Source of the DNA: Eremomyces bilateralis CBS 781.70
Lineage: Eukaryota
NCBI GenBank assembly: GCA_010015585.1
Contig: ML975154.1
Reading direction: 5' to 3' (one strand)
DNA: 64,000 nucleotides
The notes under the pieces were generated by a model. It made no database searches. It was not told where the DNA came from and saw only the letters and a list, made by a program, of their open reading frames with translations. The number at the start of each line of letters is the position of its first letter. Positions within the stretch are counted from its first letter, which is position 1. Shown in pieces: positions 48,296 to 63,729 of the stretch. A program made the translations under genes and the position numbers.

Positions 48296-49489
48296 TTACA
48301 ACGGGGGCGCGCCTGGGTCCTCCATACACTGATCGACCCTCATTATCTGTTTACCAGTCGCCTTGGCAATCTGGATAAACTGCCTTATATACGACACGGT
48401 GCTCGGGTACAGATAATGCATAACGACTAAGTTCCCGCCCTTGCTAATGTCCCGCTGGAACGCCTCGAGCTGCTTCTCCGGCGTCGGTCCCTCTGCCCAC
48501 AGCCAGTCCTCGATATCGATACTCCAGTTAATAATGGACGGGTCGTCCGTTCCCGTGGCGGCGGCGAGTCGCTGGCGCATACGAGCGCCCTCGTTTCCGT
48601 AGGGTGGGCGAAAGTACGAGGTACGTAGGCCGTTCAGTTGCTCAGCGACGGCGGCGATATCCTCGTTGTACTCGTAGTCGATGGCCTCGTAGTCGGGTAG
48701 TCCCTCCATCTTCGGGTGGGTATAGGAATGAAGGGCGACCTGGTGCCCTTGGGATAGCATCTCGTTATAGACGTTGCTGAGGTTGGTAGAAGGATCCCGG
48801 AGTGGGGCACCGACGGTAAAGAAGGTCACCTTAATATCCTCTTCCTTAATAATCTGCATAACCTCCTGGGCGAAGACCGGGTCTCCATCATCGATGCCAA
48901 AGGCAAACGAGTTAGGGCGCTTGCAAGCGAAGTAGAGACTTCCTGATGGCTCCTTAACGGGGATAGGAAAGCCGTCAGGCACGGAGGGGACGATCTCGAC
49001 CTTCGAGAAAGTAGTAGGCTCTGTAGTATACCATGCCTTTAATGCAACTCCGAGAACGCGGGTCTTGTCGATATTGAAGTGTGATATAGGCATATAGATG
49101 TCGTTATTCTGCGCATACCGAGCCGCTTCGAGAGAGTCCCATGTTTCGGGGTAGGGAGCAATCGCTTCGTTACATTCGGAGTTATGCTGCTGAAGCGAAA
49201 CGGTGAACTTGGTGCTACCGCTGTATTGGATATGAAGGTAGGAGCCGTTGTCCTCAGTCAAGTCTTCACACGTAGCGGAAACTTGGGTATAAAAAGAGTA
49301 GTCCGAATCTGGCGAAGAGACCTCTAGCTGCTGGTTGCCCCAGTTCAAGGTCATCCCCTCGTCCGCACCATGCCAGAATCCAAGATCGTTAGATGCAGAG
49401 TTACTAAAAGTGTCGATAACCAGGGCTGTGGCTTCCTGGCTCTGCGCCAACAAAGCCACCAGAGCGGTGGCGAGATGGCCGGGCAGCAT
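48296..49489 (-). CDS. Secreted CE4 (NodB) polysaccharide deacetylase with an extra N-terminal domain, intronless
   Basis: Signal peptide; motifs FGIDDG, HSYTHP, RPPYG, DIEDW, VMHY; about 170-aa N-terminal region before the NodB domain. Confidence 0.9.
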   Translation of the reverse strand: MLPGHLATALVALLAQSQEATALVIDTFSNSASNDLGFWHGADEGMTLNWGNQQLEVSSPDSDYSFYTQVSATCEDLTEDNGSYLHIQYSGSTKFTVSLQQHNSECNEAIAPYPETWDSLEAARYAQNNDIYMPISHFNIDKTRVLGVALKAWYTTEPTTFSKVEIVPSVPDGFPIPVKEPSGSLYFACKRPNSFAFGIDDGDPVFAQEVMQIIKEEDIKVTFFTVGAPLRDPSTNLSNVYNEMLSQGHQVALHSYTHPKMEGLPDYEAIDYEYNEDIAAVAEQLNGLRTSYFRPPYGNEGARMRQRLAAATGTDDPSIINWSIDIEDWLWAEGPTPEKQLEAFQRDISKGGNLVVMHYLYPSTVSYIRQFIQIAKATGKQIMRVDQCMEDPGAPPL

Positions 49490-50340
49490 CTTAGAAACAG
49501 CTCCAAAGGCGAATAAACGAGCGCGAAAAACTCAAGATCAATCAAGGGAAAGCGAGTGACTCTTGCACGAAACCGTATAGAAGGACGGACTCAGTAATAA
49601 TTAAAGAACAGACGGAACCTGGACTTCAAAAAGAAGAATCCGACAGGATAAATACGAGATTTTACACATGTTGAGGGTACTCAAGCCGTAAACATGACAG
49701 GGAGCATGGATTTCTAACCGGATCCTGAAATGTATCATGCAGAAATTTATTGCAGAGATGCCCACAATATTACGTCAAGTGGATCGGTACGACCCACTAA
49801 AAGGATCAAAAGAAGCAGCCCAGCGTTGATCATGCTGGGCTCTCCACAGTCGACGGTGCTTGGCAGGGCTGAAGCTCCAATAATGGGAGCCCATTTCGGC
49901 CGGGTGTGATAGTTAGTCCGTCCCACCCCACAAACTTAGGTTCAACCCTCAGCGTTCTGTCCCGCCAGCTCCAGGATCGATACGATAATTAGATGCAGAT
50001 GGGATCAATAGGGAACATACCCAGCAAGTTGTTCTCAGGGGTTAAACCCTCTCACCAACCAAACTCAATTCCCTTTGCGCAGTACTACGATTTGCCGCTA
50101 GATAGGAATAGAAGAATAATAAAAAGCATATCCATTTCTCGAGGTATTCCGTATATATAAGAGGCAAGAACTTATGGTCGGGTCAAACTGGCCGTCGCCC
50201 CAAACAGCCTTTCACCTAAATGGGCTCCTCATCCCATGCTGACCGAGCCCAATCAGGCTCCTTAACCCAAATACCCTTTTACGTATCACAGTCCAGTACC
50301 GTACTAGCCTCACGAAACAGACCCGGGCACCCGGGCAACT

Positions 50341-50445: not shown

Positions 50446-50928
50446 ACAACCGACAAATCATGTTTTGAGCGCAGTGACCATGACGCTGCAGTTAGCAGTT
50501 TTGATGGAGGTTAGCTCTCCGAACCCATCGGCACAGTGAACACAATGCTTCATCGTGTCTAGATAGAGGCTCGGGAAGCGGCCTGCTATTACCCAGGGGG
50601 AATATTGTCATCTTTAGGCCATTCTCCGGCACAAATAAATCTGTAGGGAAAATGTCCAGGAATTTCGCAGGTCTTTTGAAGGGGTTTTGTAGGTTATTTT
50701 CCCTCAACTGGGACCTATGTGACCGGGAACCTCACACTTTTTGAAGCCTCAAGCTTCAATTTGAACTGTCATTTCGAGCTCTTGCAATTACTACTTGAAG
50801 TTTTCACCTGCCACCTGCTATCCTCATGTGACGTCTACATCTTAAGCGCCTATCATGTCGTCGTCCCCGAAAACGTCTGCGACGCCCTCCAGAACCCCGA
50901 TCCTCTGAATCCGCCGCAAAGTTATATA

Positions 50929-51822
50929 ATGCCTCCACGCAATCGGTCACTAGGTCGCGACGTCCATATCTACGATGTCAATGACCGCACTACTGTTCTC
51001 GGTGGTCTAATCCTTACAAATGGCGTCACGAATGCCAACTTCTACTCGATGGTGGAGATTATCGTCTTGTTTAGAACTGCTTTCGAACTACAAAACGAAT
51101 AAAGATTATAAAGTACTAAGATCCAAAAGACTAACGACCCGCTTCGGCCAGGGAATTACTACATTCACGCCGCTGATAAATGTACAGCCATCTTATCATA
51201 CCCAGGCTAATCTTTGCTCCGAATATAGGTTCTTTCTCGGTTAACAACGAGTCGTGGCTAGTCCGTATAATATTTCATGCTAGTGGAACTCGTACTCAGT
51301 CTTTCCGCGATACCGTCCGCTCACGGGATCGTCGATGCGTTGTATTTGGGGAGGTTGCAGTTGACGCACAATTCGACTACTGGGATGGCTTTGAGGCCGC
51401 ACACATCTTTCCAATAGCCTACGAAGACCATTGGGAGGCTTACAGCTACAATCCCTGGATTACAATTCTACCGGACAAAGGAGGAACCATCAACTCAGTG
51501 CAGAACGGCATGTTACTTTGAAGCGATATACACCAGTTATTTGATAGCTATAGCTTCTCGATCAACCCTGACGTATGAATACCTCGATTCAAGGAAGATT
51601 TAGCCTGCTAATAATATTTTAGGATAATTACAAGGTTGTATTCTTCCGCCATGATGGGAAAGGCCTTGCTGGAAAGCATCTTGACCGAAAGCTTCTTGAT
51701 AATCCTCAACGGCCCGTTGATCAACTGCTGCGATGGCACTTCGGACAGGCCGTCTTAGCCAATATGAGAGGTGCTGGCGAGCCAGTCTTCGAGCACGACT
51801 TCCTTCCTGGCTCCGACATAGC
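50929..51822 (+). pseudogene. Fungal HNH endonuclease (HNH_2-type) pseudogene
   Basis: FRDTVRSRDRRCVV, FEAAHIFP, INSVQNGMLL*SDIHQLFD, LLRWHFGQAVLANMRGAGEPVFEHDF. In-frame stops at 51100 and 51519; first intron has no valid donor at the expected place; C-terminus appears truncated. Confidence 0.85.
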
Positions 51823-52481
51823 GGTAATACGTGGGATAGCGTGATGAAAAAAGGAAAACACTGCTTCTACAGTAGTTGTGTTGGCACCGTGTACTCAAGG
51901 ACCGGTGGGATGGTGCAAAAGCGATCGTGGCGCAGAGGATGGCGCAGCACTCGAAGCAGACAAAGAGAGAGTCCCAGCCCTGCTGCAATGCACTAATACG
52001 ATGTAGGATATTCTCTTGTCAGGAGGACTGTGCGCCAAGAAGAAATCGAAGCTAGAAGCGTGAAACCAGAAACCGATACTGCTTGTCACTGTAACTGATA
52101 CATAGCTGGTTTATAGAACCAACAAGATCTGTTCCTGCGAGAAAGTGGCCCAAAACGAGGTCTTCGCGATGAGTACTTTTTTTAATAGATCAATCAGAAC
52201 ACAGGATTCCTAGGTTACATGAATGGGATGTATATGAAGCATTTCCCTTATGATAATATGATGACAGATGCGAGCCATTTATATCGAACTCGGTCGTGAA
52301 TTGTGAATCGATGTGACGCTAAACCCAATCGGTAACCCTTGTATCCGTACATCGCATCTCAATCTTCATCATTCCATTCTCTAGCTTTGGATTCTGCGAC
52401 AGTACAGGTATTCTTTCCACGCCTCTCACTAATATCCAACGGAAAGCTGCCAGCAGCATACAGATTACCTTCACCTCAATA

Positions 52482-53976: not shown

Positions 53977-56055
53977 CTACCCCCCATTCTCCTTCATCAT
54001 TACCTCCACCTCCTTCACCTCCACCTCAATCCCCTTCCTTTCCCTCCCCACCGTCCCCGCCCTCGCACTCCCCTCCCCCCTCGTTCCCCGCCCAATACTC
54101 CCCAACCACGCCTCCGCACTCCTCACTGTCCCCTCCACCACCAACGCCACCTGACTCAACATCTCTAGCGCCTCCCGCCCAAACGCCAACACCCGCGTCG
54201 CATGCCGCACCGCCCCCTCGTCCCCCGCGCCCTGCCGCGGCGTCGCGCGCTCCCCATCCTGTGCGCCCGCTGTCGTCCCCGTTTCTTCGCCCGCCATCTG
54301 CCACCGGCCGGGGAGGGAGAGCAGCTGTCTCCGCACCAGCGCGCCGGCGTTCTCCGGCAACGCGCCGCCGGCGTATCGCGATACGGCGTGGGTGACGTGG
54401 CGGAGGGTCGCGAACAAGTCGTCGGTGAGGGAGTGGAGGCGCGCGGCGAGCTGGGTAGCGTCGGCGGCGACACGATCGTGTGCGGAGTGGGAGGAGTAGG
54501 ATCGGGAGTGGTTTGTTGGTGGTTGTTGTTGTTGTTGTGAAGAGGAAGAGGAGGGGTCGAATTTGCCGACGAGGAGAGCGAGGGCGCTCATGACGCTAGC
54601 GATGCGCTCAGTGGCGGTGGCGAGGAGGTCGAGGCAGTAACGGAGGCTGGTGAGGCTGGAATCGGAAAGGGCGACGCCGAGGCCACTGGTGGTCATCATG
54701 AGTTGCGTGCTCCAGGTCTGCGGGTGTCGCGGTTGTCGGTCCCGCTCGGATTGGCCGGGTGGGGCTAACATCTGCTTTTCGGACGGGTGTTCGGGGTGGG
54801 GGTCGAGAGTCTCATAGTTCGGGCTGCGGTGCTCCTCATCGTAGGGAGGGAGCGATTCGCGGTCGTGGTCGCTGCGGCTTGCGAGGCTGGCTTGGCTGCT
54901 GTTGCGGATTTGCGGTATGTTGAACTCCGCGGTCGCGGGCGTGGCGGGCGTGCTGAGAGCTTTTTCGATGTCGACGAGAGATTCCGCCTGCGCCACGTCG
55001 GACGCGCTGCTTTCGAGGGACATCACGCGTCTCCGTTTGCCATCCGGACCGTTGGCTCGTACGTCCGCGTCACCGTCCTTCCGCCGCGCTTTGGCCGTGT
55101 CTTTCAAGTACTTCCGGACGGCACCCTCGACACCGGTGCGGCGGGATACGGAGCCGACGGTCTGTACCACCGGGCTGCCGACGGAATTGACGGCGCGTTC
55201 GACGCGTTCGACTTGCGAGCGGATGAAGGACGGGGAGTAGTGTTTGCTCGTGGCATATGCGGTGATCGAACCGGTGATGGCGGAGGAAAGGAGGGGGTGG
55301 GAAGACGTCAACAGGGTGAGCAGCGGCTCCGAGGCCTCGTCGACATCCACCGTGGCGTTCGACGACGCGTTCGGAGAATATACCGCCGGCGGCGAATGCT
55401 GCGGGACGCTGGCTGGCGTCATTGGGAGCGGTTGTGATGCCCCGGCGGAGGACATGCTCGCGCGGGCCACATGCGGACTCCCGGTCCTCCCCCTAAAGAA
55501 ATCCGGATTCCCCAGCCCACTGAGCGCCTCCGCCGCCATCCGCACATCCGGATCGTCCATCGACAGGTTGGAGATGGTGTTTAGCGTATTGTTCACGCTG
55601 CCGGTGGTGCTGGTGCTCGTCTGCCTCCGCATGCCGGCGCCTTGCGCCGCGTGGCTGTGCGTATGCGCCGGGTCGTCGTAGCTCAGCACGCTCTCCCGCG
55701 GACTTGTCATCGCGCTCTGCGATCCGGGGACGGTCGCTGGTACCCGTGGGAAGTGGCCCGGATGCATCATCGATGGGTTCGTCCAGGCGGAGTGCGGCAG
55801 CGCGGAGCCATACGCTCCGCCATTGAAGCCGCTACCCGATAGCCGCTCGTCGCGCTTCGAGGGCGGGAGGCCCAAGGATTTTAGATCGGGCAGGTTGAGC
55901 GATGTCGACGGCTTGTGGCGTGGCACGGCGGGGAAGTCGAGGGTCGAACGATCTGTCTGCGTCGGTTGTGGAGGGGAGGTTGACGCAAATGGCTGGCGTG
56001 GTGATTGCGATTGCGAGTAGGACGGAGGACGACTCCGTGGTTGTTGTAGCTCCAT
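53977..56055 (-). CDS. OPI1: Opi1-family transcriptional repressor (Yas3/ccg-8-like)
   Basis: DDPDVRMAAEALSGL (Sin3-interaction-like), WSTQLMMTTSGLGVALS...SLRYCL, VSRYAGGALPENA...VRRQLLSLPGRW. Confidence 0.85.
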   Translation of the reverse strand: MELQQPRSRPPSYSQSQSPRQPFASTSPPQPTQTDRSTLDFPAVPRHKPSTSLNLPDLKSLGLPPSKRDERLSGSGFNGGAYGSALPHSAWTNPSMMHPGHFPRVPATVPGSQSAMTSPRESVLSYDDPAHTHSHAAQGAGMRRQTSTSTTGSVNNTLNTISNLSMDDPDVRMAAEALSGLGNPDFFRGRTGSPHVARASMSSAGASQPLPMTPASVPQHSPPAVYSPNASSNATVDVDEASEPLLTLLTSSHPLLSSAITGSITAYATSKHYSPSFIRSQVERVERAVNSVGSPVVQTVGSVSRRTGVEGAVRKYLKDTAKARRKDGDADVRANGPDGKRRRVMSLESSASDVAQAESLVDIEKALSTPATPATAEFNIPQIRNSSQASLASRSDHDRESLPPYDEEHRSPNYETLDPHPEHPSEKQMLAPPGQSERDRQPRHPQTWSTQLMMTTSGLGVALSDSSLTSLRYCLDLLATATERIASVMSALALLVGKFDPSSSSSQQQQQPPTNHSRSYSSHSAHDRVAADATQLAARLHSLTDDLFATLRHVTHAVSRYAGGALPENAGALVRRQLLSLPGRWQMAGEETGTTAGAQDGERATPRQGAGDEGAVRHATRVLAFGREALEMLSQVALVVEGTVRSAEAWLGSIGRGTRGEGSARAGTVGRERKGIEVEVKEVEVMMKENGG

Positions 56056-56975
56056 CGTTGCGGTTTAGATATGTCAACCGCACCGCTTTGCAGAAGGATG
56101 TGGCTCTGCGGGCTCGGTGTCGCCCATACACGGCCTCGCTTCTGGATGTTCCAGTACTGAGCAACTGATGTCTTCCTCGTCCAGTATTTTGACCCGGTGG
56201 AAATTCGTGGTGATGAGCGAAACCGGCGTCAGATTCACCCAGGCCGTGTTGGATGTCTTGGCGGCTCGTGATAGTTCAATCCTCCAGTTTCAATAACGAC
56301 GACCGACTAGGTTTGCATGTGCAAGAGGGTCCGTTCCAGCGGGTTCGTCAGCGCGGATGGCTCTGCTCGATCGCGGATGGATTTTGAGGCCTGCAAACGG
56401 AACGGATGTAGGTAGGATGGATGGCCGGTGGGAGGTCGAAAGAAATATCGGACCGGATGGTGTAAGGATAGATCGTAGGAGAGATAGGGTAGGGTAGGAA
56501 AAGACAGGATGAGACGGAAGGTAATCCAGGGCGGATGATGGACTATGGTTGGTTGGATAGCATCTAGCTTTCGTTCTTTGCATGTGAGAATTCCACTATA
56601 GACGGTTTTAATAGTATGTATTGCCGGTAAGAAGGAGGGAGGGATTCGATCTAACTGTGAGTGAGAGAGGAGCAGCATGTGATACAGCCATATTCCTTCG
56701 GATCCCCCACGACGACCCTCTCCCATTCTCCCCCATTTCCCCCCACCACCCTTGGTGCTGAACATAATTAGAGTAGAAACAGGGAGGGGCACGTGAAAGG
56801 GACATGGAAGCTCCTACTGATGCTTATGGTGGGGGAAGCGCCAGTCAGATTGGCTGGATTAACCCTTATACATCGTTACAACTTACAATAGGTGAACAGA
56901 TTAATTGCCATTCACATTTCGCTTCCAAAGCTAAAACAAGTGTAGTAACCTATAGACATCATATCATAACCACCG

Positions 56976-58701
56976 CTAGAAATGTTCCTTCCAAAACTTA
57001 AACTTCACCTCCCGACAATCCGCCTCCTGACACGCCCGCTTGATATCCCTCGCCGCCACGCTCGGCCCGCAGAAATACACCCCCACCTCTGTCCTTAACG
57101 TCGCCTCGAGCCCCCTCCCCCCCAAATCCCGCATATAACTCCCCTCCACAATCCCATCCCTTAGCCCCGTCAACAAGCGCGGAAAGTCCGGCCGCCCAAA
57201 GTTCGTCCGACTCCGCAGCTCCGTCAGCGGATCTTTCGCCTGCCCCACGCTGTTCAGCACGATATTCTGCGCCGCGTCCACGTCCAGCCGCTGCGTCAGG
57301 TACGTATGGATGCGCAGGAAGTCGTCCTGCCCGTCGCCCGCGGCGCCCATGCTCTGCGCCTCGAGGCTGGAGAGCAGCGCCTGGAACCACTCGAAGGACG
57401 CGGTGTCCTTGCACACCCAGATGAACTCGACGCGGCGGAGGCGGCGCGGCGGGTTGGGGCCCTGGCGGAGGTGGTAGATGTTCTTGAGGATTGACGCCCA
57501 TGGGGTGACGCCGATGCCGGTGCCGATGAGCACGGCGATCTCGTTGGAGAACACGTCCTCGGCGGGCGCGCCGTACGGGCCGTCGATGCGGATCTGCGGC
57601 ATCGTCTGCCCGGCTTGGAGGGCCACTTCATACATGCCGGAGGGGTCGACGGGGCAGCTGGTGATGGTGAAGGGGTGCCATTGGTAGTAGGAGATGGAAG
57701 GGCAGTTGAGGAAGAGCCATTGGCCGGGTTTGTAGTGCATCGAGGGTTTGCGGAATTGGATCTCGACGGCGTCTGGGGCGGTTAGTGGATTCCGCTGAGT
57801 AGGGAAGGTAGGTCTTACCGTATGGATGCTTGACGACCTTAACGATCTCCGTCGCTTGCCGGGCGCGGATTTCACGGTAGATCCGCTCGAGCAGGTATAA
57901 ACCGCCCCCGACTAACTCCCATCGCCAGCCCTCGTATCCAATGCAATGATTCCAGAAATTGGCACCAGCAAACGGGCTATAAGGATCCGTCGTGTCACGC
58001 ACGAAGCATCCGGTCGCATGCGTATACATGCCCAGGAGGAACGGGATGAAGAGGTGATGCGCATACCAAAACGTCTCATACGACTGCTGTCGTACCCGGT
58101 GATGAGCGGTAGTGTACATCAAGAGCATGCACAGCAGCATGATATGCCCGGTAATCCCACCCGCCTGGGTATAATGAATCTGCAGCGCCAGTTCCGGGCG
58201 GAGCTGCGCCTTCTCTACGTTGATGAAGCTGAATCACACGTTAGTATTGACCTGGCAGCACAGCACTCGTTACCTACTTGACGTAATGACTGGCGACATG
58301 AACCATCGTCCACCACAGCAGCTGATAGGCCACCTGCCGATGGAACCATTGCGATTCATCTAGCGGAAGCCATCGAATTTTCGGTCGAACGTATCGGAGG
58401 ATCGTCCGACACATGGGTAACAGAATGATCATCGTATCGACCGACAGAACCAACCCGGCTCCTCGCGAGAACCACACCGAGTACGTGAGCGTGTTCAACC
58501 CCGCGAGACGGGCATCACTTTGCTGCTTCCACCTGGACATAGCAGTTAGTATCGGATCGCGTCATCTGGTCGGGTTGCGCTCTGGGACACTCACCATCCA
58601 ACGGCAAAAAGCGCCCAATGAAGTCCATGGAAAGCGAGGTAGAAAATCAACTTCCGCGCCGTGAAATGCTTCTGCCAGAACGTCCGCTCCGTTTGACCCA
58701 T
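56976..58701 (-). CDS. noxA: NADPH oxidase catalytic subunit NoxA/Nox1 (gp91phox-like), 4 exons, with an apparent internal in-frame deletion
   Basis: SRGAGLVL, WFHRQVAY, HVASHY, FWYAHHLF, WHPFTITSCP, DGPYG, GTGIGVTPW, FGRPDF, YFCGP, WKEHF*; no N-terminal extension or EF-hands. Confidence 0.93.
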
Positions 58702-61182
58702 TTTGCAACGATAGGTCTCCCTTTATCCAAAGTAAACCAGCGGGATGACTTCTGAGGTGCTAGAGGTACTGAGGCGAAGCAAGGAAGCTATCGTCCGATT
58801 CCTTCGAATACGCAATCAAACCCCGAGAAGAAAGAGATGTCGTCCGTGAGGGGTATATACAACCAACCCCGTGATTCGTAACGAGTAGCTAACAAAATGC
58901 AAAGTCGTTTCCAAGAGATTATCGTACGGAAGGGAACGCCGACAGGTGTACCCAGCGCAAAAAAAGAGCGACAATTAGACCTGCAGATGGTAAAAAGGAA
59001 AGGTCACCGGCCAGCCAGATCTAGGAATGAAAGTAGAGATGAGGGAGAAACCTGCGAATGCCCTAGAGTGGACGAGCGGTAGGTATGTGCGGTGGATGAG
59101 TTATGAGGAAATTGTAAATTTGGATCAGTCGCGGATCGCCTGCGCTGCGTATTGGACTGCTTTGTGAAGAGAGGAATGCAATTCCTTTTTCAGATGTAAT
59201 TGTTTGAGGCAGCTCGGGACCAGAGCTGCGAGATCCCGGTGGCCGACGACTTCTGTAGTTCGCCTTCACCTAGTCCTCGGTCTGAAACTGCCGACACTCG
59301 TTAACAGCAGTGTGAATTCTCTCGAGTAATGGGTCCCGGGGGTTGGGTTTGACGTGTTGCTTTCCCATGTACTAGTTGAGAAGTTCAACCATGCAGGTAG
59401 GGCGGTCTGATCGAGGTTGTCTCAGATGTGTATCGGACTGGGACAGAGTCTGAGGGGTCAGGGAGATGTGGTGCGGGATTATCGTGATACAATGCTTCGG
59501 TGGAGTATTCGGAAATGTATGAAGGAAGTCCGTCTGATTTTAACTCGACGGTGGAAATGCGATTTGGATCTAAGGCGCGGAATCCGATATTCCCAGATGA
59601 GTTTCGAATGAAGTAACAGGACACGGTTCCTGATAAAGGTATTTCTCCCGTTCCAGCTCCTAATCCCAGCGTCAATCGTCCGCCAACCTCTTCCAGCAAT
59701 CCTTTAATTCTTTCAAAGTGTGCGGCGCAAATCGCGCTGTGCGGCGATCCAGGGCGAAGGGGGGGCGTTGGTATGGGATGTCGGATCTGAGACGTACAGC
59801 CGTCAGAAGTCCGCCTGACTGAAACGCTGGTGGGCTGTCAGCGGAAGGCGGGGCGCAGAGGTGCTTTCGGCGGTGTGGATAGGTAGCCCGGGGATGGCAG
59901 TGCGCGGCGAGCTCATTGCGGGCGATTGAGGCACATCGTGAGGCGGAAGGAATGGAAGGGAAGATACAGTGTGGAAGGATACGGTAGTGATGCAGAAATG
60001 TTGGCGATGGGCGTTCGCATGTCCAAGTGTGGACTATGGAGAAGCGAGGGACCACCCGATGTACCGACTGGGATCTTCCCGTGAAATCCACCACACTAAT
60101 CGGGATCCTCAAAACCTAAAGCGAGTCAGGAGTAGCGAGGAGGGGTATCAAAGACCAAGGCGAATAGTACGGAATATGCAAGTCAGGATATCACCGACTG
60201 ACATTTCCAGAATAACCAATTCGTTGAGATATCGAATCGGAGACCATTGTTCTCAGTCGATTCTCCCAGAGTTTCCGTGTCTCGTCCAGTCTCCAGGAAG
60301 ATAGAGGAGCTATTTTTGCTCGCACATGGTTCTGCAGCGACAAGGACTGGTCACCAACGGATTGGTGACGTGCGACCCGGAGCATGCAAGGTCCAACCAA
60401 TCTGCATGGTGCTGCAACCGCCCGAAAACAGACTACCCAACGCCCCGGCTTGTCAGTCCTGGAAGGTTGTGGATGGTCACACTTGGTATTCAGCTCTCGT
60501 AATGCCCTTGCATTGTGCTGGTTCGGAACCTGTTGTACTTCGAGGGACTTTTCCAATGAGCCGACATGAAGCGACTCGGCGCTCTGGGTGGGTACGACGG
60601 AAAGTAAAATCGGGTTCACTGACATCCTCCACAGCCCAAACATCACTCTCGACGGGCGTGTTGCCAAATTACCAAAATCTAATTGACAAATGTTACGATC
60701 GAAGTCAACGCCGAGGACACGCCAAAGATCAAGTAAGATTTGAACTAAGAAATTCAGACTTCGCTTCGAAGGATATTGCTAAACTCATCACGCCAAGAGC
60801 GACAACCCCGCTCGACTTGCGGTCGATCTGACATGCGGAAAACTGGTGGCTGGGGATTGGTGACGCATTTAGGGCTCACTCAAGGAATTCAATGTAGCAC
60901 GAATACGGAGTATCCGAGTCGCAATCAGCAAAGCAGCCGGGATAAAAGGTGATCCATATGTGATAATCAAGACCGTATCAGTGGGTTGAAGAAGAGGGCA
61001 TCCACGGCGCCGGGATATCCATTCTGGTTGGAGATCTAGATGGGAGATGGAAAGATGGTGGGAGGGTGGGATGGTGAGTTGGTGATGGTGTGTAGCTGTG
61101 GGAGGGAGGAAGCGAAGCCGAAGGTGACGGTCCGAATCGAGGGGCGGCCTTGGGCGGTCAGGCCCCCTGCAAGCTCCATTTG

Positions 61183-63184: not shown

Positions 63185-63729
63185 ATGGGTCGCCTAATAA
63201 AGAATCACTGGGCCCGCCTCATCGTCCTCACAGCCGCAGCCTGTAAGCTCCCCCATCCCCCTCCAATCCACCCACTAACCCCCCAGACCAACTCGCCGCC
63301 GCCCTCGAAGCCTTCTTCTGGCCCAAAATCTTCTGGGACTTCCTCTCCCACAACCTTGACCGCGCCGTCACCCCGATCCCCTTCCTGCAGGTCATCAACC
63401 TCATCTTCGCCGTCTCCGCCCTCGCCCTCGAGTGGCCGCTGAAGTACATCGCCGGGACGTCGCTCCATCGGAGCATCGAGCTGAGGTTGATTATAATCCC
63501 GCTGTATGCCTTGGCGTCGATCTTGTTGTACCAGGGGACAAATCCCGCGATCTACTATATCATCGCTGAGGGTATCTATTTCTGGGGTTTCTCGGAAGGA
63601 GAGGTGAGTCGCCGTCGACTGGTTTAGCTTTCGAGAACTCGGCTGATTCGATGATAGACTATTTGCGAACGACCGTGGACATTACCAGTCCGCGTGCGAC
63701 GATCGGAACTAGGCGGTTCAAAGGTATAA
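63185..63729 (+). CDS. noxD: NoxD/Pro41/HAM-6 (fungal p22phox-like membrane subunit), 3 exons
   Basis: MGRLIKNHWARLIVLTAA, FFWPKIFWDF, LEWPL, LLYQGTNPAIYY, SEGE-intron-TICERPWTLP; introns 63243-63286 and 63604-63657. Confidence 0.92.

Follow-up and report, generated by a model that had tools for sequence, protein, structure and literature searches.

The noxA gene of Eremomyces bilateralis CBS 781.70 has lost 105 bases from the coding sequence of its FAD-binding domain, and this loss is genuine and not an assembly error. A preliminary description of this DNA had proposed that about 35 residues were missing; alignment, motif spacing and Pfam coverage now place the loss at exactly 35 codons, at 57649-57643 of the window, by which we mean the whole stretch of 64,000 nucleotides that was analysed. 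We regard the gene as a real, well-defined and apparently young allele of a known gene, very likely one of lost function, which is fairly ordinary and does not represent a new kind of enzyme.

A 105-base deletion in the FAD-binding domain of noxA

The noxA gene runs on the minus strand from 58701 to 56976 and comprises four exons that encode 522 residues, with no internal stop in the spliced frame. Its translation is identical, letter for letter, to the database protein P0003, which carries the source label Eremomyces bilateralis CBS 781.70 and forms a single-member cluster. The three introns are absent from the contigs of a sequencing run (X3) that is presumably RNA, although none of the runs found to contain the locus is recorded as such. 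The parts of the gene are as follows.

58595..58701, minus strand: noxA exon 1, with the ATG at 58701; the spliced coding sequence corresponds to P0003
58533..58594, minus strand: noxA intron 1, 62 nt, GT-AG, spliced out in the X3 contig
58278..58532, minus strand: noxA exon 2, transmembrane part with heme ligands H100 and H114
58229..58277, minus strand: noxA intron 2, 49 nt, GT-AG, spliced out in X3
57819..58228, minus strand: noxA exon 3, with heme ligands H178 and H191 and the beginning of the FAD subdomain
57773..57818, minus strand: noxA intron 3, 46 nt, GT-AG, spliced out in X3
56976..57772, minus strand: noxA exon 4, truncated FAD subdomain and full NADPH subdomain; stop TAG at 56978-56976
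57666..57677, minus strand: first FAD motif H-P-F-T, kept, equivalent to NOX2 H338-T341
57643..57649, minus strand: deletion junction, one copy of a putative 7-nt microhomology left; 105 nt (35 codons, including H-x-R-x-x-G-D-F-T) gone
57570..57584, minus strand: D-G-P-Y-G motif, kept, end of the FAD subdomain by sequence and alignment
57501..57524, minus strand: NADPH-binding G-T-G-I-G-V-T-P motif, kept, by sequence

By descent the gene is a NoxA orthologue, best filed as a broken noxA allele. The ferric-reductase-like transmembrane domain (PF01794) is present, and its four histidines H100, H114, H178 and H191 are 100% conserved in homologues, with a spacing that matches NOX2 H101/H115/H209/H222. 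Also present are the first FAD motif H-P-F-T and the NADPH subdomain (PF08030) with its G-x-G-x-T-P and C-G motifs; the one defining trait of a working NOX that the protein fails is the second FAD motif and complete FAD barrel, both of which are absent. Assignment to NoxA over NoxB, NoxC and DUOX draws on the matches, the top ones of which include proteins named NADPH oxidase A or NoxA, on a separate NoxB-like gene in the genome, on the domains and on synteny with noxD, and not on a tree. The public name of P0003, 'dual oxidase 1 precursor', is a misannotation, as the Pfam matches are confined to three NoxA-type domains and include neither an EF-hand nor a peroxidase domain. Compared with P0004 and P0006, the protein also carries a 5-residue insertion near its C-terminus (window about 57140-57105, exon 4), which recurs in P0123 and may be a family marker common to P0003 and P0123. 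RIP indices across noxA are unremarkable (TpA/ApT 0.58).

Exon 4 reads W-H-P-F-T-I-T-S-C-P-V-D-P-S-G-M-Y-E in a single frame, with the junction codons CCC (57653-51), GTC (57650-48), GAC (57647-45) and CCC (57644-42). Aligned with 118 homologues, NoxA shows one clean 35-residue gap after S-C-P. The span from HPFT to DGP is 31 residues in this protein, compared with 66 in 286 of 295 homologues, 65-74 in five and 51 in one sponge NOX, while three of the 295 are regular-expression artefacts for this span and have a normal inner span. The H-x-R-x-x-G-D-F-T-type motif, which the earlier reading had assigned to the missing segment, is indeed found in all 295 homologues and is absent here. Consistently, the Pfam FAD_binding_8 match covers profile positions 5-61 of 109 in P0003 and 5-109 in the intact P0004.

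The same loss was seen in no other fungus, neither among the 295 homologues nor among the best 120 of 985 matches in a homologue search focused on the junction, of which none exceeded 52% identity over the 50 residues. It was likewise absent from 78 of 80 metagenome loci, with L066 and L086 left out because they did not parse in one frame. The best 150 of 1851 HMMER matches added 148 new proteins, in which the span was measurable in 111 (37 were off-pattern). A rust-fungus NADPH oxidase gene model, P0355, does lack the second FAD motif, together with many other internal gaps; it looks like a faulty gene prediction, probably with missed exons, and was not counted as a parallel case. Neither the missing segment nor a second noxA copy was found elsewhere in the genome, where the only matches were NoxB and ferric-reductase-like genes. 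The preliminary description had also seen no intron-sized gap at the junction, and this holds, given that the three GT-AG introns sit elsewhere. A cryptic intron or mis-splicing was rejected, as the DNA itself is without the bases and the X3 contig is colinear across this region.

The junction was examined in four (X1-X4) of five listed sequencing runs, as assembled contigs only, and contigs drop rare variants. The X1 contig covers 56500-59500 with 0 differences from the window, of which this run may be the source data. Run X2, which is DNA from the same sample as X1, has a contig over 56868-58301 with 0 differences and 0 gaps. Run X3 comes from a second sample and study, and its spliced contig at 57160-57772 crosses the junction with 0 differences; it has no cover at 56564-57159, to which we attach no weight. 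Because X3 skips the introns and crosses the junction unchanged, the short form of noxA is transcribed and spliced. However, X3 is identical to the window and probably from the same strain, and thus is not independent evidence on the origin of the deletion. No loose ends, joints or extra pieces were among the pieces listed at 57643-57649 in X1-X3, where word depths are 138-318.

These runs bear on the concern, raised by the preliminary description, that the gene is complete in the genome and that 105 bases lying between two repeats were lost in assembly. Such a collapse would gain some footing if X1 were the window's own source data. Three separately assembled runs, two of DNA and one presumed RNA run of a second sample, nonetheless give one junction, and the 7-nt repeat is far below the 31-letter words of the run index, with no 31-mer across the junction repeated in the window. 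We therefore give assembly collapse next to no credence.

Deletion mechanism and predicted effect on the enzyme

The fourth run, X4, represents a syntenic relative whose noxA exons are 79-89% identical to the window and which retains the missing bases. On its contig, window positions 56977-57649 correspond to record positions 55989-56661 and 57643-57775 to 56760-56892, so that X4 has 98 unaligned plus 7 shared nucleotides, or 105 extra nucleotides (35 codons), at the junction. Seven nucleotides fit either side against X4, and the breakpoint could lie anywhere within 57649-57643. The species label of X4 (record 17 on window 56977-59018) is that of X1, yet the two runs have almost no 31-mers in common; X4 is either mislabelled or a deeply divergent relative and, at 79-89% exon identity, is too divergent to serve as a conspecific isolate. 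The closest protein, P0123, also keeps the segment and is 92% identical over the downstream part. It reads S-C-P-V-D upstream and L-D-P-S-G downstream of the segment, and by this comparison the V at the junction may derive from the upstream repeat copy.

Intact fungal noxA loci carry two D-P codon pairs 105 nt apart. At this position, 32 of 54 distinct intact loci contain an exact repeat, 5 nt or longer, at offset 105, compared with 47 of 810 background windows, an enrichment that is partly built in by the conserved D-P codons and, as the loci are related, does not amount to statistical proof. What it does show is that the D-P repeats of noxA are always at hand for slippage or for repair by microhomology. 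At the junction itself, a short direct repeat is found at both ends relative to X4 and one copy is left. We infer that the deletion was microhomology-mediated, as the preliminary description had suggested: two short repeats that code for D-P, spaced 105 nt apart, would have recombined or slipped during replication to give the in-frame 105-bp deletion. Because the repeats are in phase, the preserved reading frame is explained without invoking selection.

Mapping the loss onto structure provides a rationale for a severe effect on catalysis. Across 76 non-redundant homologues, 11 of the 35 deleted columns never vary, and the arginine of the motif is 99% conserved. By alignment counting, the lost motif is equivalent to human NOX2 H354-T362, with the arginine corresponding to R356. 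The flavin ring pocket of NOX2 is formed by P339, F340, T341 and R356 (PMC9711523), and one change in that pocket, T341K, abolishes FAD incorporation (PMC13296129). AlphaFold models, which were built on near-identical alignments and have medium confidence, with mean pLDDT values of 65.8 and 68.6, place six strands in the FAD subdomain of the intact P0004 (pLDDT 76-84 over residues 241-320) and five in that of P0003, in which the strand at 300-306 and two helices are missing and pLDDT is 37-76. Against the CsNOX5 dehydrogenase structure 5o0x, Foldseek gives a TM score of 0.58 and an rmsd of 8.0 for P0003, compared with 0.79 and 4.9 for P0004. The FAD subdomain of P0003 is thus predicted to be destabilised.

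The 522-residue product keeps its transmembrane, heme and NADPH parts, and lacks one of the six FAD-barrel strands, the H-x-R-x-x-G-D-F-T motif and the helix that follows it. Such a protein should be unable to hold FAD or to move electrons from NADPH to heme, and would be null for superoxide production. From sequence and models, oxidase activity is very likely lost, and the earlier suggestion of a probably inactive enzyme is well supported by this structural mapping. A shortened NoxA that still binds FAD and works as an oxidase with a compact FAD domain would find a parallel in distant NOX-family proteins with HPFT-to-DGP spans of just 41-44, in which the later loop is dispensable. However, those short proteins retain this strand as well as the start of the helix, G-x-[FW]-T, and shed the variable loop alone, whereas this NoxA, with a span of 31, is without both strand and motif, and we find a compact active form extremely hard to credit.

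Partner genes and the age of the lesion

The gene divergent from noxA, 4.5 kb upstream, is noxD-like.

63185..63729, plus strand: noxD/pro41/ham-6-like gene, exons 63185-63242, 63287-63603 and 63658-63729; 148 aa, no internal stop; Pfam DUF7727

With its three exons and uninterrupted 148-residue frame, this gene is intact, in agreement with the preliminary description. The name noxD is presumed from that description and from the synteny with noxA. A noxD homologue lies upstream of noxA, in divergent orientation, in 40 of 80 fungal loci (L011-L090), 58-69% identical in most, and many of the remaining 40 loci have short flanks. The genome further holds a putative NoxR-like gene with TPR and PB1 domains that looks intact, and a putative Cdc24-like gene. 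A NoxB-like gene on contig C35 (34-38% identity to P0004) keeps its FAD motif, and a HAM-2/Far11 domain gene looks intact.

Both mating-type genes were found. MAT1-1-1 (alpha box) is at L097:4887-6068 (G000 C9), among unrelated genes, and a MAT1-2-1-like HMG gene is at L098:4492-5697 (G000 C15), adjoining an APN2-like gene. Their presence on different contigs suggests homothallism, or self-fertility, with unlinked mating-type loci. Nearer to noxA, an Opi1-family transcription factor frame lies directly downstream (53977-56064, minus strand) and finds no counterpart in the flanks of any of the 80 loci. A secreted-looking polysaccharide deacetylase (PF01522) is at 48296-49531 on the minus strand, and several short frames at 50680-51866 on the plus strand may resemble pieces of a fungal HNH-endonuclease-domain gene.

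The rest of NoxA shows no excess of changes at conserved sites. All 184 invariant columns are unaltered. Among the 276 columns with 95% conservation, 4 are changed (mean of the others 2.6, with 4 or more in 19 of 76), and among the 319 with 90% conservation, 8 (mean of the others 5.9; corresponding count 22 of 76). If the gene has been neutral since the deletion, later divergence is bounded at about 0.007-0.01 substitutions per site. Over the 86 codons to which the 40 listed difference rows extend, the window and X4 differ synonymously at 28 and non-synonymously at 4, and these mostly silent differences indicate that purifying selection acted on noxA for nearly all of the time since the split. 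An old pseudogene was rejected, given the absence of an internal stop and the unchanged invariant columns. Since the remainder of NoxA is undecayed and noxD, noxR, noxB and the mating-type genes look intact, the lesion looks very young.

Origin of the allele and comparison with known systems

By the convention of the culture collection, the strain number presumably implies a deposit around 1970. The deletion would have arisen in the only noxA gene of the strain during vegetative maintenance in the collection, where a gene for fusion and fruiting could be dispensable, such that a null that is costly in the wild would be nearly free on agar. E. bilateralis is a dung saprobe that forms cleistothecia and has no described asexual morph (PMC4150071), and CBS 781.70 is its ex-type culture (PMC4150071, PMC7082219). 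In model fungi, deletion of noxA in A. nidulans stops cleistothecia at the primordium stage with hyphal growth unaffected (PMC3749384), and nox-1 in Neurospora is required for perithecia and fusion (PMC6702951, PMC6455062). Because NoxA loss blocks fruiting in such models and this species is cleistothecial with no asexual stage, mutation in long-term culture is the likeliest origin, and we consider it probable. If the deletion did arise in culture, the living strain is predicted to be sterile.

Experimental evolution in Neurospora offers a related setting. One report describes fusion-gene nulls in 8 of 8 serially transferred lines and an advantage at low frequency for a noxD/ham-6 deletion, names no nox mutant among those eight evolved cheater lines, and places the cheater advantage in asexual spores (PMC7862218). 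A so deletion is also common to several knockout-collection strains (PMC10580951). This species is described as having no asexual spores, the route by which the cheater advantage works, and relaxed rather than positive selection may therefore have fixed the allele. Targeted searches, which covered few subscription papers and no supplements, found no published report of this noxA lesion.

A recent null could instead have arisen in the wild and be fixed or segregating there, with fruiting proceeding in the absence of NoxA activity, for example through NoxB or another source of ROS. The short allele is fixed in all three runs with the locus (X1-X3), and NoxB and NoxR are present, which fits such a history. 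We judge it unlikely, since the rest of the gene is undecayed, the species relies on cleistothecia and model ascomycetes need NoxA for fruiting; in Botrytis, moreover, NoxA and NoxB fail to substitute for one another (PMC5611593). A mixed culture, in which deleted nuclei dominate and a minority of intact nuclei in a heterokaryon supplies NoxA, is a distinctly poor prospect. Rare variants could have been dropped from the contigs, and 60-nt bubble contigs that differ by one letter occur at 58272-58362, in exon 2, in both X2 (DNA) and X3 (presumed RNA); with depths below those of the main contig (over 58303-58362, for example, 31 against 143 and 37 against 284), they are either a minority variant or systematic sequencing error. 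Against intact nuclei, the pieces listed for X1-X3 include none that is extra at the junction and show no joint or loose end there at depths of 138-318, and a search of the assembly found no second noxA match.

The preliminary description had also raised a non-catalytic role. In one form of it, selection would keep an FAD-blind NoxA that serves, together with NoxD and NoxR, as a scaffold in the membrane for the signalling behind fusion or fruiting. The in-frame deletion, the correct transcription and splicing, the fully conserved remainder of NoxA and the intact noxD fit this role, and according to a review it is not clear if fusion depends on ROS as such or on the NOX-1 complex acting as a platform (PMC6455062). 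Residues specific to NADPH and FAD would be superfluous in a scaffold, but every one of the 184 invariant columns is unchanged. In addition, the 295 homologues and 78 parsed loci include no second lineage with the deletion, the in-phase D-P repeats account for the in-frame length, and the models predict a destabilised FAD subdomain. The proposal has no positive support, a very young lesion better accounts for the lack of decay, and we hold selection for a scaffold to be very improbable. Somewhat less remote, though still quite unlikely, is that the deletion is common to wild E. bilateralis and that the FAD-blind NoxA serves as a non-catalytic NoxD/NoxR platform or NoxB supplies the ROS.

Loss in culture, our preferred reading, carries a practical consequence. 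The identical protein is public, and comparative studies let the genome it comes from stand for an entire order; a lesion of one strain can there be misread as lineage biology. If the culture origin is true, noxA joins the fusion and fruiting genes that are lost on long propagation. The transcribed, in-frame and putatively FAD-blind NoxA is also a ready tool for telling apart what the NoxA-NoxD complex does by catalysis and what it does as a scaffold. The allele would be surprising only if wild isolates carry it and still fruit. In that case, nature would have supplied a separation-of-function allele for ROS versus the complex in fusion and fruiting, in a fungus that is self-fertile and has no asexual stage.

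Among known systems, the gene is most like fungal NoxA/Nox1 (NOX2/gp91phox-like; A. nidulans NoxA and N. crassa NOX-1), with which it shares three Pfam domains, four heme histidines, the HPFT, DGPYG and GIGVTP motifs and a divergent noxD neighbour. It has about 76% mean identity to the 76 non-redundant homologues, and the closest records are Dothideomycete NoxA proteins such as P0004. Unlike these, it is missing 35 FAD-subdomain residues, including the second FAD motif, and is 522 rather than about 550-556 residues long. In the predicted loss of FAD binding, with the equivalent of R356 hit, it resembles the human NOX2 FAD-pocket mutants of chronic granulomatous disease (for example T341K, X91+). 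However, those are point mutations, whereas the 35-residue deletion removes a strand of the barrel, and the protein may also be unstable. In its putative history it is like spontaneous fusion-defective Neurospora cultures (so/ham-1, ham-5, ham-8), in which a long-propagated laboratory strain lost the function of a fusion or fruiting gene. It differs from them in the gene affected and in that their gain runs via asexual spores, while the culture origin of the Eremomyces allele is itself the probable rather than the observed course of events.
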